NCBI RefSeq assembly: GCF_002854065.1
Contig: NZ_CP024147.1
Reading direction: 5' to 3' (one strand)
Length of the DNA: 64,000 bases
From: Escherichia coli
GTDB taxonomy: Bacteria > Pseudomonadota > Gammaproteobacteria > Enterobacterales > Enterobacteriaceae
Made by a program: the position numbers and the translations under genes. Positions 21,700-62,021 of the stretch are shown here, one piece after another (position 1 is the stretch's first letter; every line of letters starts with the position of its first letter). A model generated the notes under the pieces. That model had not been told where the DNA came from and ran no database searches. It saw nothing but the letters and a program-made list of their open reading frames with translations.

Positions 21700-23448
21700 A
21701 TGCATAACGACAAAGATCTCTCTACGTGGCAGACATTCCGCCGACTGTGGCCAACCATTGCGCCTTTTAAAGCGGGTCTGATCGTGGCGGGCGTAGCGTT
21801 AATCCTCAACGCAGCCAGCGATACCTTCATGTTATCGCTCCTTAAGCCACTTCTTGATGATGGCTTTGGTAAAACAGATCGCTCCGTGCTGGTGTGGATG
21901 CCGCTGGTGGTGATCGGGCTGATGATTTTGCGTGGTATCACCAGCTATGTCTCCAGCTACTGTATCTCCTGGGTATCAGGAAAGGTGGTAATGACCATGC
22001 GTCGCCGCCTGTTTGGTCACATGATGGGAATGCCGGTTTCATTCTTTGACAAACAGTCAACGGGTACGCTGTTGTCACGTATCACCTACGATTCCGAACA
22101 GGTTGCTTCTTCCTCTTCTGGCGCACTGATTACTGTTGTGCGTGAAGGTGCGTCGATCATCGGCCTGTTCATCATGATGTTCTATTACAGTTGGCAATTG
22201 TCGATCATTTTGATTGTGCTGGCACCGATTGTTTCGATTGCGATTCGCGTAGTATCGAAGCGTTTTCGCAACATCAGTAAAAACATGCAGAACACCATGG
22301 GGCAGGTGACCACCAGCGCTGAACAAATGCTGAAAGGCCATAAAGAAGTATTGATTTTCGGTGGTCAGGAAGTGGAAACGAAACGCTTCGATAAAGTCAG
22401 CAACCGAATGCGTCTTCAGGGGATGAAAATGGTTTCAGCCTCTTCCATCTCTGATCCGATCATTCAGCTGATCGCCTCTTTGGCGCTGGCGTTTGTTCTG
22501 TATGCGGCGAGCTTCCCAAGTGTCATGGATAGCCTGACTGCCGGTACGATTACCGTTGTTTTCTCTTCAATGATTGCACTGATGCGTCCGCTGAAATCGC
22601 TGACTAACGTTAACGCCCAGTTCCAGCGCGGTATGGCGGCTTGTCAGACGCTGTTTACCATTCTGGACAGTGAGCAGGAGAAAGACGAAGGTAAGCGCGT
22701 GATCGAGCGTGCGACTGGCGACGTGGAATTCCGCAATGTCACCTTTACTTATCCGGGACGTGACGTACCCGCCTTGCGTAACATCAACCTGAAAATTCCG
22801 GCAGGGAAGACGGTTGCTCTGGTTGGACGCTCTGGTTCAGGTAAATCAACCATCGCCAGCCTGATCACGCGTTTTTACGATATTGATGAAGGCGAAATCC
22901 TGATGGATGGTCACGATCTGCGCGAGTATACCTTGGCGTCGTTACGTAACCAGGTTGCTCTGGTGTCGCAGAATGTCCATCTGTTTAACGATACGGTTGC
23001 TAACAACATTGCTTACGCACGGACTGAACAGTACAGCCGTGAGCAAATTGAAGAAGCGGCGCGTATGGCCTACGCCATGGACTTCATCAATAAGATGGAT
23101 AACGGTCTCGATACAGTGATTGGTGAAAACGGCGTGCTGCTCTCTGGCGGTCAGCGTCAGCGTATTGCTATCGCTCGAGCCTTGCTGCGTGATAGCCCGA
23201 TTCTGATTCTGGATGAAGCTACCTCGGCTCTGGATACCGAATCCGAACGTGCGATTCAGGCGGCACTGGATGAGTTGCAGAAAAACCGTACCTCTCTGGT
23301 GATTGCCCACCGCTTGTCTACCATTGAAAAGGCAGACGAAATCGTGGTCGTCGAGGATGGTGTCATTGTGGAACGCGGTACGCATAACGATTTGCTTGAG
23401 CACCGCGGCGTTTACGCGCAACTTCACAAAATGCAGTTTGGCCAATGA
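21700..23448 (+). CDS. msbA: lipid A ABC exporter (flippase)
   Basis: 582-aa [27 protein letters not shown]...; Walker [13 protein letters not shown] signature LSGGQRQR. Confidence 0.95.
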
Positions 23449-52419: not shown

Positions 52420-52774
52420 ACTCTCTCCTTATAACCAATTGTTCTTGTTTTGTTAACATTGATAACAATTCGCTCAGTCTGTCGGAGAGACAAGAAAATG
52501 CCAAATATAAATTTTGTGTATCTTTTTCTGAAAATAAACTAAAGAAAGGGCTTTATATATCACGCATATTTATTTATTGGATAGTCATTAGATGTTGAAT
52601 CAATGAATTACTCGTTCAGGTAATATTTAAATATTCATGAAATCTATAAATTAAAGATTTGTCACTTATTGGATTTAGTATGCTTGATTTAAATGGCGGA
52701 CAATTATTGTTATTATTAAGTCTAATGTCATTTAAAGGCATTATCATATTTACGAAGAGATCAGGATGATAACG

Positions 52775-53314
52775 ATGAAAAAAAGTGTATTGACGGCGTT
52801 TATAACTGTGGTATGTGCAACGTCCAGTGTTATGGCAGCTGATGATAATGCTATCACGGATGGTTCAGTAACATTTAATGGTAAAGTTATTGCTCCAGCT
52901 TGTACCCTGGTCGCTGCGACGAAAGATTCCGTGGTGACTTTGCCAGATGTTAGTGCCACGAAGTTGCAAACCAATGGTCAGGTTTCTGGCGTGCAAACTG
53001 ATGTGCCAATTGAATTAAAAGATTGTGATACTACCGTAACAAAAAATGCAACGTTCACCTTTAATGGCACTGCGGATACTACTCAGATTACAGCGTTTGC
53101 TAACCAGGCCTCATCTGATGCTGCTACAAACGTGGCCCTGCAAATGTATATGAATGATGGTACAACGGCCATCACGCCAGACACAGAAACCGGGAACATT
53201 TTGTTGCAGGATGGAGATCAGACGTTGACTTTTAAAGTTGATTATATCGCTACGGGGAAAGCGACTTCAGGTAATGTGAATGCGGTAACAAATTTCCATA
53301 TTAACTATTATTAA
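52775..53314 (+). CDS. elfA: fimbrial major subunit
   Basis: Start at MKKSVLTAFITVVCATSSVMA (signal peptide); fimbrillin-like, Cys pair near N-terminus. Confidence 0.8.
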   Translation: MKKSVLTAFITVVCATSSVMAADDNAITDGSVTFNGKVIAPACTLVAATKDSVVTLPDVSATKLQTNGQVSGVQTDVPIELKDCDTTVTKNATFTFNGTADTTQITAFANQASSDAATNVALQMYMNDGTTAITPDTETGNILLQDGDQTLTFKVDYIATGKATSGNVNAVTNFHINYY

Positions 53315-53346
53315 TAGAACTCATTAATTGTTTTGTTAATTAGTAC

Positions 53347-53382
53347 CCCTCCAGTGTTCTGGAGGGGATATTCATATTTTTT
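53347..53382 (+). terminator. hairpin after elfA major subunit gene (likely partial terminator)
   Basis: CCCCTCCAG-tgtt-CTGGAGGGG, then a T-run 8 nt downstream. Confidence 0.5.
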
Positions 53383-53396
53383 AAGAGTGACTATTT

Positions 53397-54098
53397 ATGA
53401 AAACTTGCATAACAAAGGGAATTGTGACCGTAAGTTTAACGGCAATATTACTCAGCTGCTCATCCGCATGGGCGGCAGGTAAAGGCGGGATTGGACTTGC
53501 AGCAACACGTCTTGTTTATTCAGAAGGTGAAGAGCAAATTTCACTGGGTGTACGTAACACCAGTCCGGATGTTCCTTATCTGATTCAGTCATGGGTGATG
53601 ACCCCAGATAATAAAAAATCAGCAGACTTTATTATTACACCACCGCTATTTGTGCTGAATCCGGCTAATGAGAATCTGTTACGCATTATGTACATTGGTG
53701 CGCCGTTGGCGAAAGACAGAGAAACTCTTTTCTTCACTAGCGTACGGGCAGTCCCTTCAACAACGAAGCGGGAAGAAGGCAATACCCTGAAGATTGCCAC
53801 ACAAAGCGTCATCAAACTTTTCTGGCGACCAAAAGGTTTAGCGTATCCCTTAGGCGAGGCTCCGGCGAAACTGCGTTGCACTTCGTCAGCTGACATGGTT
53901 ACGGTCAGTAACCCAACACCTTATTTCATTACCCTGACAGACCTGAAAATAGGTGGAAAGGTAGTTAAAAATCAAATGATTTCCCCCTTTGATAAATACC
54001 AATTCTCTCTGCCAAAGGGTGCCAAAAATAGCAGCGTAACGTATCGAACCATCAATGACTACGGGGCGGAAACGCCGCAACTCAACTGTAAATCGTAA
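53397..54098 (+). CDS. elfD: periplasmic pilus chaperone
   Basis: 233-aa ORF with signal peptide, recognised as a PapD-like chaperone. Confidence 0.85.
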   Translation: MKTCITKGIVTVSLTAILLSCSSAWAAGKGGIGLAATRLVYSEGEEQISLGVRNTSPDVPYLIQSWVMTPDNKKSADFIITPPLFVLNPANENLLRIMYIGAPLAKDRETLFFTSVRAVPSTTKREEGNTLKIATQSVIKLFWRPKGLAYPLGEAPAKLRCTSSADMVTVSNPTPYFITLTDLKIGGKVVKNQMISPFDKYQFSLPKGAKNSSVTYRTINDYGAETPQLNCKS

Positions 54099-54122
54099 TT
54101 CGTCTTCAGTTAAGAGAGCGAG

Positions 54123-54587
54123 ATGTATAGAACTCACCGACAACACAGCCTGTTAAGCTCTGGTGGCGTGCCATCGTTTATTGGTGGGCTGGTGGTGTTT
54201 GTGTCGGCAGCGTTCAATGCACAAGCTGAAACCTGGTTCGATCCAGCCTTTTTCAAAGATGATCCCTCAATGGTGGCCGATTTGTCTCGTTTCGAAAAAG
54301 GACAAAAAATAACGCCAGGGGTTTATCGTGTCGATATTGTTCTGAATCAGACAATTGTAGATACGCGCAACGTCAATTTTGTTGAGATAACGCCAGAGAA
54401 GGGGATTGCCGCCTGTTTGACGACTGAAAGCCTGGATGCAATGGGCGTGAATACTGATGCATTTCCGGCTTTTAAACAACTGGACAAACAAGCGTGTGCG
54501 CTATTGGCGGAGATTATTCCGGATGCCAGCGTAACTTTTAATGTGAATAAACTCCGTCTGGAAATTTCAGTACCGCAAATTGCCATC
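54123..54587 (+). pseudogene. elfC: fimbrial usher, N-terminal fragment interrupted by IS2
   Basis: ORF starts MYRTHRQHSLLSSGG... and is stopped by TAG 54588-54590, the first three bases of the inserted IS2. Confidence 0.8.
54583..54587. repeat. IS2 target-site duplication (CCATC), left copy
   Basis: CCATC immediately precedes the IS2 end and recurs at 55919-55923. Confidence 0.8.
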
Positions 54588-54629
54588 TAGACTGGCCCCC
54601 TGAATCTCCAGACAACCAATATCACTTAA
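54588..54629. repeat. IS2 terminal inverted repeat (transposase-proximal end)
   Basis: Imperfect match to the reverse complement of 55877-55918, sharing TCCAGACA and ATCACTTAA blocks. Confidence 0.6.
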
Positions 54630-54678
54630 ATAAGTGATAGTCTTAATACTAGTTTTTAGACTAGTCATTGGAGAACAG

Positions 54679-55044
54679 ATGATTGATGTCTTAGGGCCGG
54701 AGAAACGCAGACGGCGTACCACACAGGAAAAGATCGCAATTGTTCAGCAGAGCTTTGAACCGGGGATGACGGTCTCCCTCGTTGCCCGGCAACATGGTGT
54801 AGCAGCCAGCCAGTTATTTCTCTGGCGTAAGCAATACCAGGAAGGAAGTCTTACTGCTGTCGCCGCCGGAGAACAGGTTGTTCCTGCCTCTGAACTTGCT
54901 GCCGCCATGAAGCAGATTAAAGAACTCCAGCGCCTGCTCGGCAAGAAAACGATGGAAAATGAACTCCTCAAAGAAGCCGTTGAATATGGACGGGCAAAAA
55001 AGTGGATAGCGCACGCGCCCTTATTGCCCGGGGATGGGGAGTAA
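54679..55044 (+). CDS. insC: IS2 OrfA / InsC (HTH DNA-binding)
   Basis: 121 aa [56 protein letters not shown]... Confidence 0.9.
54996..55002 (+). promoter_or_regulatory. A6G slippery heptamer (programmed -1 frameshift site of IS3-family transposase)
   Basis: AAAAAAG at the insC/insD overlap, where the insD frame opens. Confidence 0.6.
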
Positions 55045-55907
55045 GCTTAGTCAGCCGTTGTCTCCGGGTGTCGCGTGCGCAGTTGCACGTCATTCTCAGA
55101 CGAACCGATGACTGGATGGATGGCCGCCGCAGTCGTCACACTGATGATACGGATGTGCTTCTCCGTATACACCATGTTATCGGAGAGCTGCCCACGTATG
55201 GTTATCGTCGGGTATGGGCGCTGCTTCGCAGACAGGCAGAACTTGATGGTATGCCTGCGATCAATGCCAAACGTGTTTACCGGATCATGCGCCAGAATGC
55301 GCTGTTGCTTGAGCGAAAACCTGCTGTACCGCCATCGAAACGGGCACATACAGGCAGAGTGGCCGTGAAAGAAAGCAATCAGCGATGGTGCTCTGACGGG
55401 TTCGAGTTCTGCTGTGATAACGGAGAGAGACTGCGTGTCACGTTCGCGCTGGACTGCTGTGATCGTGAGGCACTGCACTGGGCGGTCACTACCGGCGGCT
55501 TCAACAGTGAAACAGTACAGGACGTCATGCTGGGAGCGGTGGAACGCCGCTTCGGCAACGATCTTCCGTCGTCTCCAGTGGAGTGGCTGACGGATAATGG
55601 TTCATGCTACCGGGCTAATGAAACACGCCAGTTCGCCCGGATGTTGGGACTTGAACCGAAGAACACGGCGGTGCGGAGTCCGGAGAGTAACGGAATAGCA
55701 GAGAGCTTCGTGAAAACGATAAAGCGTGACTACATCAGTATCATGCCCAAACCAGACGGGTTAACGGCAGCAAAGAACCTTGCAGAGGCGTTCGAGCATT
55801 ATAACGAATGGCATCCGCATAGTGCGCTGGGTTATCGCTCGCCACGGGAATATCTGCGGCAGCGGGCTTGTAATGGGTTAAGTGATAACAGATGTCTGGA
55901 AATATAG
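55002..55907 (+). CDS. insD: IS2 OrfB / InsD (DDE transposase catalytic domain)
   Basis: 301-aa ORF in the -1 frame relative to insC ([34 protein letters not shown]...). Confidence 0.9.
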
Positions 55908-55918
55908 GGGCAAATCCA
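55877..55918. repeat. IS2 terminal inverted repeat (distal end)
   Basis: Reverse complement matches 54588-54629 imperfectly. Confidence 0.6.
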
Positions 55919-59120
<3,202 letters not shown>

Positions 59121-59131
59121 CGCGTGAACGT

Positions 59132-59674
59132 ATGAAGAAAAAAACGATATTTCAGTGCGTTATCTTGTTCTTTAGCATTCTTAACATCCATGTCGGGATG
59201 GCTGGGCCTGAACAAGTTAGTATGCATATTTATGAGAATGTGGTCGATCAGGGCTGTGATGTCGCCACCAAAAGTGCATTACAAAATATTCATATTGGCG
59301 ATTTTAATATCAGTGATTTTCAGGCCGCGAATACCGTAAGCACTGCTGCTGATTTGAATATCGATATCACCGGTTGTGCCGCTAGTATTACTGGCGCGGA
59401 CGTCCTTTTTAGCGGCGAGGCTGACACCCTTGCACCGACACTGCTCAAACTAACTGACACAGGCGGAAGCGGTGGTATGGCAACAGGGATTGCCGTGCAA
59501 ATTCTTGATGCGCAAAGTCAGCAAGAAATCCCGCTCAATCAGGTCCAGCCTCTTACGCCCTTAAAAGCCGGGGATAACACACTCAAATATCAACTTCGTT
59601 ATAAGTCCACAAAGGCGGGAGCAACGGGCGGTAATGCGACGGCGGTTCTCTATTTTGATCTGGTTTACCAGTGA
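59132..59674 (+). CDS. ycbU: fimbrial-like subunit
   Basis: 180-aa ORF with signal peptide; fimbrillin-like. Confidence 0.75.
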   Translation: MKKKTIFQCVILFFSILNIHVGMAGPEQVSMHIYENVVDQGCDVATKSALQNIHIGDFNISDFQAANTVSTAADLNIDITGCAASITGADVLFSGEADTLAPTLLKLTDTGGSGGMATGIAVQILDAQSQQEIPLNQVQPLTPLKAGDNTLKYQLRYKSTKAGATGGNATAVLYFDLVYQ

Positions 59675-59681
59675 AGGAGTG

Positions 59682-60149
59682 ATGTTGAAACGGATAATCT
59701 GGATTCTGTTCTTACTGGGATTAACGGGGGGCTGTGAGCTATTTGCCCATGATGGCACGGTCAACATTAGCGGATCGTTTCGCCATAATACATGCGTGCT
59801 GGCACAGGATAGCAAGCAAATCAATGTGCAGTTAGGCGATGTCTCGCTGACACGTTTTTCTCATGGGAATTATGGCCCGGAGAAATCTTTCATCATTAAT
59901 TTGCAGGATTGCGGAACAGATGTCAGCACGGTTGACGTCACCTTTTCAGGAACCCCCGACGGAGTGCAGAGCGAAATGTTGTCCATTGAAAGTGGTACGG
60001 ATGCAGCCAGCGGGCTGGCAATTGCGATTCTGGATGATGCGAAGATATTGATTCCGCTTAACCAGGCGAGTAAAGACTACAGCCTACATAGCGGTAAGGT
60101 GCCATTAACTTTTTATGCGCAATTGCGACCTGTCAATAGCGATGTGTAG
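59682..60149 (+). CDS. ycbV: fimbrial-like subunit
   Basis: Start MLKRIIWILFLLGLTGGCELFA; fimbrillin-like. Confidence 0.7.
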   Translation: MLKRIIWILFLLGLTGGCELFAHDGTVNISGSFRHNTCVLAQDSKQINVQLGDVSLTRFSHGNYGPEKSFIINLQDCGTDVSTVDVTFSGTPDGVQSEMLSIESGTDAASGLAIAILDDAKILIPLNQASKDYSLHSGKVPLTFYAQLRPVNSDV

Positions 60150-60189
60150 TCTGGTAAAGTGAATGCCAGCGCGACATTTGTACTTCATT

Positions 60190-60900
60190 ATGACTAATAC
60201 GTGGAACAGATTGTCGCTCTTGATTTTCGCCGTTTTATCGCTGCTGGTGGCGGGTGAATTGCAGGCAGGAGTGGTGGTCGGCGGAACGCGATTTATCTTT
60301 CCGGCAGACAGAGAATCGATATCTATTTTACTGACTAATACCAGTCAGGAATCCTGGCTTATTAACAGTAAAATCAACCGCCCAACGCGTTGGGCCGGAG
60401 GTGAAGCGTCGACAGTGCCAGCACCATTACTGGCCGCTCCGCCACTTATTCTCCTGAAGCCCGGTACGACAGGCACGTTGCGCTTGCTGAGAACGGAAAG
60501 CGACATCTTGCCTGTGGATCGCGAAACGCTCTTTGAGTTAAGCATTGCCAGCGTGCCATCCGGCAAAGTTGAAAATCAGAGCGTAAAAGTGGCGATGCGC
60601 TCGGTATTTAAACTGTTCTGGCGACCCGAAGGTTTGCCGGGCGACCCGCTGGAAGCTTATCAACAATTACGCTGGACACGGAAGTCGCAGGGTGTACAAC
60701 TCACTAACCCAACGCCTTATTACATTAACCTGATTCAGGTGAGCGTAAATGGTAAAGCGTTAAGTAATGTGGGAGTTGTGCCGCCTAAAAGCCAGCGTCA
60801 GACAAGCTGGTGTCAGGCAATAGCACCGTGTCATGTTGCCTGGCGGGCGATAAATGATTACGGCGGGTTGAGTGCAAAGAAGGAGCAAAATCTGCCCTGA
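60190..60900 (+). CDS. ycbF: periplasmic pilus chaperone (second chaperone of the cluster)
   Basis: Start MTNTWNRLSLLIFAVLSLLVA (236 aa); PapD-like; paralogous in layout to elfD. Confidence 0.75.
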   Translation: MTNTWNRLSLLIFAVLSLLVAGELQAGVVVGGTRFIFPADRESISILLTNTSQESWLINSKINRPTRWAGGEASTVPAPLLAAPPLILLKPGTTGTLRLLRTESDILPVDRETLFELSIASVPSGKVENQSVKVAMRSVFKLFWRPEGLPGDPLEAYQQLRWTRKSQGVQLTNPTPYYINLIQVSVNGKALSNVGVVPPKSQRQTSWCQAIAPCHVAWRAINDYGGLSAKKEQNLP

Positions 60901-60908
60901 AACAGGTT

Positions 60909-60924
60909 CGGAAAACGTTTGCGT
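60909..60924 (+). promoter_or_regulatory. PurR box upstream of pyrD
   Basis: cGGAAAACGTTTGCGt with the palindromic AAACGTTT core, about 90 bp upstream of the pyrD ATG. Confidence 0.5.
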
Positions 60925-61010
60925 TTTTTTTGCCGCAGGTCAATTCCCTTTTGGTCCGAACTCGCACATAATACGCCCCCGGTTTGCACACCGGGAATCC
61001 AGGAGAGTTC

Positions 61011-62021
61011 ATGTACTACCCCTTCGTTCGTAAAGCCCTTTTCCAGCTCGATCCAGAGCGCGCTCATGAGTTTACTTTTCAGCAATTACGCCGCATTACC
61101 GGAACACCGTTTGAAGCACTGGTGCGGCAGAAAGTGCCTGCAAAACCTGTTAACTGCATGGGCCTGACGTTTAAAAATCCGCTTGGTCTGGCAGCCGGTC
61201 TTGACAAAGACGGGGAGTGCATTGATGCGTTAGGCGCGATGGGATTTGGATCGATCGAGATCGGTACCGTCACGCCACGTCCACAGCCAGGTAATGACAA
61301 GCCGCGTCTCTTTCGTCTGGTAGATGCCGAAGGTTTGATCAACCGTATGGGCTTTAATAATCTTGGCGTTGATAATCTCGTAGAGAACGTAAAAAAGGCC
61401 CATTATGACGGCGTCCTGGGTATTAACATCGGCAAAAATAAAGATACGCCAGTGGAGCATGGCAAAGATGACTATCTGATTTGTATGGAAAAAATCTATG
61501 CCTATGCGGGATATATCGCCATCAATATTTCATCGCCGAATACCCCAGGATTACGCACACTGCAATATGGTGAAGCGCTGGATGATCTCTTAACTGCGAT
61601 TAAAAATAAGCAAAATGATTTGCAAGCGATGCACCATAAATATGTGCCGATCGCAGTGAAGATCGCGCCGGATCTTTCTGAAGAAGAATTGATCCAGGTT
61701 GCCGATAGTTTAGTTCGCCATAATATTGATGGCGTTATTGCAACCAATACCACACTCGATCGTTCTCTGGTTCAGGGAATGAAAAATTGCGATCAAACCG
61801 GTGGCTTAAGTGGTCGTCCGCTTCAGTTAAAAAGCACCGAAATTATTCGCCGCTTGTCACTGGAATTAAACGGTCGCTTACCGATCATCGGTGTTGGCGG
61901 CATCGACTCGGTTATCGCTGCGCGTGAAAAGATTGCTGCGGGTGCCTCACTGGTGCAAATTTATTCTGGTTTTATTTTTAAAGGTCCGCCGCTGATTAAA
62001 GAAATCGTTACCCATATCTAA
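61011..62021 (+). CDS. pyrD: dihydroorotate dehydrogenase (quinone)
   Basis: Start [21 protein letters not shown] (336 aa). Confidence 0.9.

Follow-up and report, generated by a model that had tools for sequence, protein, structure and literature searches.

The PurR box upstream of pyrD in an Escherichia coli chromosome corresponds to the known K-12 operator

The 16-bp sequence CGGAAAACGTTTGCGT, which precedes pyrD in a 64,000-nucleotide stretch of an Escherichia coli chromosome (NCBI RefSeq assembly GCF_002854065.1, contig NZ_CP024147.1; the whole stretch is referred to here as the window), is with a probability of about 95% the known PurR operator of this gene, a conserved and ordinary site that has already been documented. 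In all 16 letters it is identical to the motif that was reported for pyrD of strain K-12 (positions 1,003,889 to 1,003,904), within a PurR ChIP-chip region assigned to the same gene (1,003,618 to 1,004,017; Cho et al. 2011, PMC3159470, Table 1). The K-12 peak appeared only with adenine and, at a log2 enrichment of 1.01, was among the weaker signals of that study. Direct repression of pyrD by PurR is stated both there and in a 2018 review, citing Wilson & Turnbough 1990, and the literature describes it as roughly twofold and far weaker than the repression of pur genes. A PurR site has also been predicted before pyrD in Yersinia pestis.

The window extends from dmsA to rlmKL. Around the box, a 701-bp stretch occurs with 100% identity in several complete genomes, and 5,425 of 5,426 E. 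coli genomes have a match to it. In a strain whose sequence shows 100% identity to window positions 60600 to 61300, RefSeq places the start of pyrD at 61011, and the annotated gene order there is elfC-elfG-ycbU-ycbV-ycbF, pyrD, zapC, ycbX (on the opposite strand) and rlmKL. The K-12 operator is the same 16-mer between the same neighbors, ycbF upstream and pyrD downstream. Its end at 1,003,904 appears to lie 87 bp before the K-12 pyrD start (1,003,991 in the same genome version), in agreement with the spacing between 60924 and 61011 in the window. The features of the pyrD control region are collected in Table 1.

Table 1. Coordinates of the operator, promoter and leader features of pyrD in the window
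Feature	Position	Strand	Basis
PurR operator (pur box) CGGAAAACGTTTGCGT	60909-60924	+	Matrix score; identity with the K-12 pyrD motif; conservation in 81 loci
Conserved block, T-tract followed by TTGCCGCAGGTCAATTCCCTTT	60925-60953	+	Mean column conservation 0.90; 15 of 29 columns invariant in 81 loci
Putative pyrD -10 hexamer, CATAAT	60967-60972	+	Sequence; ATAAT invariant in 81 loci
Putative cluster of alternative transcription starts, CCCG, with CTP/GTP-sensitive switching	60978-60981	+	Position relative to the putative -10 hexamer; review
Predicted leader hairpin CCCGGU/ACCGGG, 5' end of the longer pyrD transcripts	60978-60995	+	Folding; leader 98% conserved
Shine-Dalgarno sequence AGGAG, 5 nt before the ATG	61001-61005	+	Sequence; invariant in the alignment
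Regulated gene pyrD, coding for quinone-dependent dihydroorotate dehydrogenase	61011-62021	+	Annotation of the identical strain

The site itself shows no difference from the K-12 operator; compared with K-12-like genomes, the strain has differences in other parts of the window, among them an IS2 element in elfC. This element, 1,331 bp long and delimited by terminal inverted repeats, interrupts the fimbrial usher gene at 54588 to 55918. It encodes TnpA (54634 to 55044) and TnpB (55002 to 55907) and is flanked by a 5-bp target duplication, CCATC (54583 to 54587 and 55919 to 55923). Strain PapM-32-1, which is otherwise 99% identical, does not have the IS2 in elfC.

Sequence of the box and its alternatives

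On the + strand, the 16 positions from 60909 to 60924 read cGGAAAACGTTTGCGt, and 60913 to 60920 constitute the self-complementary core AAACGTTT; the box and its palindromic core are thus found exactly where an earlier note, made from the sequence, had located them. The box is intergenic and starts 9 bp past the ycbF stop codon, which ends at 60900. The gap between box and pyrD ATG is 86 nt and the box center is 94.5 nt upstream of the ATG, in line with the distance of about 90 bp given in that note; from the center to the putative -10 hexamer the distance is about 50 bp. As a 16-bp imperfect palindrome, the box fits the pur-box descriptions ACGNAAACGTTTGCNT and ACGCAAACGTTTTCNT, and it occupies the usual place of a pur box, the control region of a gene of nucleotide metabolism. 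Its reverse complement, ACGCAAACGTTTTCCG, has a single mismatch to the classical consensus ACGCAAACGTTTTCNT. The dyad falls on a central CpG (C60916 and G60917), both bases of which are invariant in the 81 pyrD loci described below. A central CpG step between A/T-rich arms is the site of the hinge-helix kink in the crystal structures of PurR with the purF operator.

Short A/T-rich palindromes are common, and a palindrome that arose by chance between two genes, with no regulatory role, would have been hard to distinguish from an operator in loose scans: with up to 3 mismatches about three matches are expected in the window by chance. Such scans (at most 3 mismatches on the 16-mer or at most 2 on a 12-mer), in which chance accounts for as many matches or more, were uninformative and were replaced by a scan with at most 1 mismatch and by a position weight matrix (PWM). 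The former returned the box as the single match to ACGCAAACGTTTTCNT within the window, whereas dinucleotide-preserving shuffles gave an expectation of 0.03. For the PWM, the pyrD entry was left out of Table 1 of PMC3159470 and the remaining 27 PurR motifs were used. The earlier note had named a poor score against a curated PurR matrix as the result that would refute its reading, and this outcome was not obtained: with these ChIP-supported sites, the box scored 20.66 bits, the highest value among the 128,000 positions of the two window strands and a mid-range one, 13th, among the 28 published sites. A first-order Markov null of 200 simulated sequences gave widely spread maximum scores (mean of 15.65, one at 24.6) and was replaced by the exact score distribution, according to which a score like that of the box has a probability of 5e-8 per position and 0.0065 matches are expected per window on both strands. 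The invariant columns of the core in 81 genomes, next to flanks that drift, and the occupancy of the identical sequence by PurR in K-12 in vivo (PMC3159470) also speak against a chance palindrome, the probability of which we regard as negligible. The second-best PWM match in the window, ACGACCACGATTTCGT on the - strand (23336 to 23351), reached 14.05 bits, no more than chance would give, with 0.77 such matches expected in a window.

The AAACGTTT core is generic among LacI-family operators, which share a central AAnCGnTT, and by this feature the box could serve another LacI/GalR-family regulator, for example Cra, GalR/GalS or CytR. The outer bases, however, are the ones that discriminate, and here they make up a perfect PurR half-site, GTTTGCGT. 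The purF operator (cvpA-purF-ubiX), AAGAAAACGTTTGCGT, and the pyrD box have 14 of 16 bases in common and differ only in the first two; the central CpG and the perfect half-site are present in both. If TGAAACGTTTCA is taken as the Cra core, the box has 4 mismatches to it, all of them at outer positions. Moreover, the protein used for ChIP in K-12 was tagged PurR (PMC3159470), and an operator of a different family member is very improbable. To much the same degree we doubt that the palindrome and the following run of eight T residues act as an intrinsic terminator of the upstream elf/ycb fimbrial operon, as the close proximity of the ycbF stop codon could suggest. A hairpin, GGAAAACG/CGUUUUUU, can indeed be drawn directly after that stop, but its folding energy of -4.7 kcal/mol is no better than that of shuffled sequences (z = -0.19), its stem takes up most of the U-run, and a scan for terminators returned none on the + strand at this place. 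Furthermore, the box and a T-rich tract are kept in E. coli strains and in genera where the upstream gene, ssuE, is divergent and not co-oriented. A terminator of ycbF was rejected, as the G+C-rich stem-loop with a free U-run that defines this class is not found here.

Conservation in Enterobacteriaceae and the elf island boundary

Genomes were scanned with PyrD as the query protein and the 80 closest loci were kept, all with at least 91% protein identity, from Escherichia, Citrobacter, Salmonella, Klebsiella, Enterobacter, Kosakonia, Kluyvera and other Enterobacteriaceae; with one E. coli locus added, 81 loci were compared. Within 400 bp upstream of pyrD, the best PWM match was on the + strand and 84 to 97 nt before the ATG in every one of them (81/81), with scores ranging from 12.8 to 24.5 bits. 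When the 135 nt preceding pyrD were aligned, the box stood out as a phylogenetic footprint. The flank 5' of the box is 55% conserved and has zero invariant columns, compared with 92% conservation in the 12-bp core, where 7 of the 12 columns (G3, A6, C8, G9, T11, T12 and G13 of the box) are invariant. Variation within the core is mostly confined to positions 4 and 10, which are degenerate in the PurR motif itself, and the outer positions 1, 2, 15 and 16 vary too. Such a pattern would be expected for a site under selection for PurR binding. Together with the identical K-12 ChIP-chip motif and the repression known from the literature, the conservation in 81 loci upholds the assignment made in the earlier note, a PurR box of the PurR-regulated gene pyrD.

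The distance between the box and the ATG falls into two classes, 84 to 86 nt (31 loci) and 94 to 97 nt (50 loci), and the distance from the box center to the putative -10 hexamer likewise forms two classes across genera, 48.5 to 50.5 and 58.5 to 61.5. The two spacing classes are about 10 bp, or about one helical turn, apart, and the box would therefore keep to the same face of the helix.

The fimbrial island elfADCG-ycbUVF (window positions 52488 to 60910) is missing in 1,353 of the 5,426 complete E. coli genomes. Strains without the island align to the window up to 52487 and then again from 60911, which places the right-hand boundary of the island 2 bp inside the PurR box. In these strains ssuE is directly divergent from pyrD. 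Their allele of the operator, AAGAAAACGTTTGCTA followed by TTTATT (as in NZ_CP027440), scores 14.5 bits, compared with 20.66 bits for the window allele, CGGAAAACGTTTGCGT followed by T8.

The pyrD promoter and the mode of repression

A scan of positions 60700 to 61200 for the sigma-70 consensus found zero promoters, which indicates a poor -35 element; the -10 and -35 elements and the start site were therefore placed by means of CATAAT, conservation and the statements of a review. The conserved block directly downstream of the box probably holds a weak -35 element (TTCCCT, 60944 to 60949, with a 17-bp spacer) and an UP-like T-run. The conservation of this block exceeds what a weak -35 element would appear to need. 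The CCCG cluster lies 6 to 9 nt downstream of CATAAT. According to the review, pyrD transcripts start with CTP 6 to 7 nt past the Pribnow box or, with GTP, slightly further downstream, and translation is blocked by a 5' hairpin with which the longer transcript begins. Predicted folding energies of the leader depend on the start in a way that agrees with this description (-14.3 kcal/mol from 60977, -10.8 from 60979 and -6.7 from 60981). The predicted stem ends 5 nt before AGGAG, so any block of the ribosome would be steric and would not involve pairing with the Shine-Dalgarno sequence.

If position 60979 is taken as +1, the box would extend from about -70 to -55, upstream of the poor -35 element and abutting the T-run. 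PurR operators of pur genes generally lie between -35 and -10 and confer strong repression; the pyrD box, unlike these, would be upstream of -35, and the repression reported for it is weak. The upstream position fits the roughly twofold effect. Since the box would not overlie the promoter, repression is not accounted for by mere occlusion of the core promoter. The PUR box of carAB P1 is similar to that of pyrD in being an upstream PurR site at a promoter of the pyrimidine pathway with weak repression by purines, of the roughly twofold class. The carAB box, in contrast to that of pyrD, is centered at -128.5 and requires PepA-induced remodeling, as PurR by itself is not sufficient for repression at carAB. 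We know of no PepA-like cofactor for pyrD.

Taken at its known function, the operator would be bound just upstream of the pyrD core promoter by a dimer of PurR, a LacI-family protein, together with hypoxanthine or guanine. Bound PurR would modestly lower pyrD transcription when purines are plentiful, and pyrimidine synthesis would in this way be coupled to the supply of purines. The place of the box relative to the putative start site is inferred, as is the mode of repression from there; it is plausible that PurR interferes with upstream contacts of RNA polymerase at the adjacent T-tract. The known CTP/GTP-dependent switching of start sites, with its leader hairpin, is a separate control that acts downstream of the box. 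It is tempting to join these observations into one reading, in which PurR would repress pyrD from about -62 in a manner dependent on the face of the helix, either by blocking alpha-CTD/UP contacts or by cooperating with another factor on the conserved block, and in which purines would control pyrimidine synthesis more strongly in some E. coli lineages than in others; we consider this joint reading unlikely.

The pyrD box can serve as a positive control when raw sequence is read for motifs. At the junction of the elf island a lineage-specific operator allele has arisen, a small, testable point on how nucleotide regulation varies among strains. As a site the box adds nothing new, and it confirms the textbook cross-pathway control by which enough purine dampens pyrimidine synthesis.
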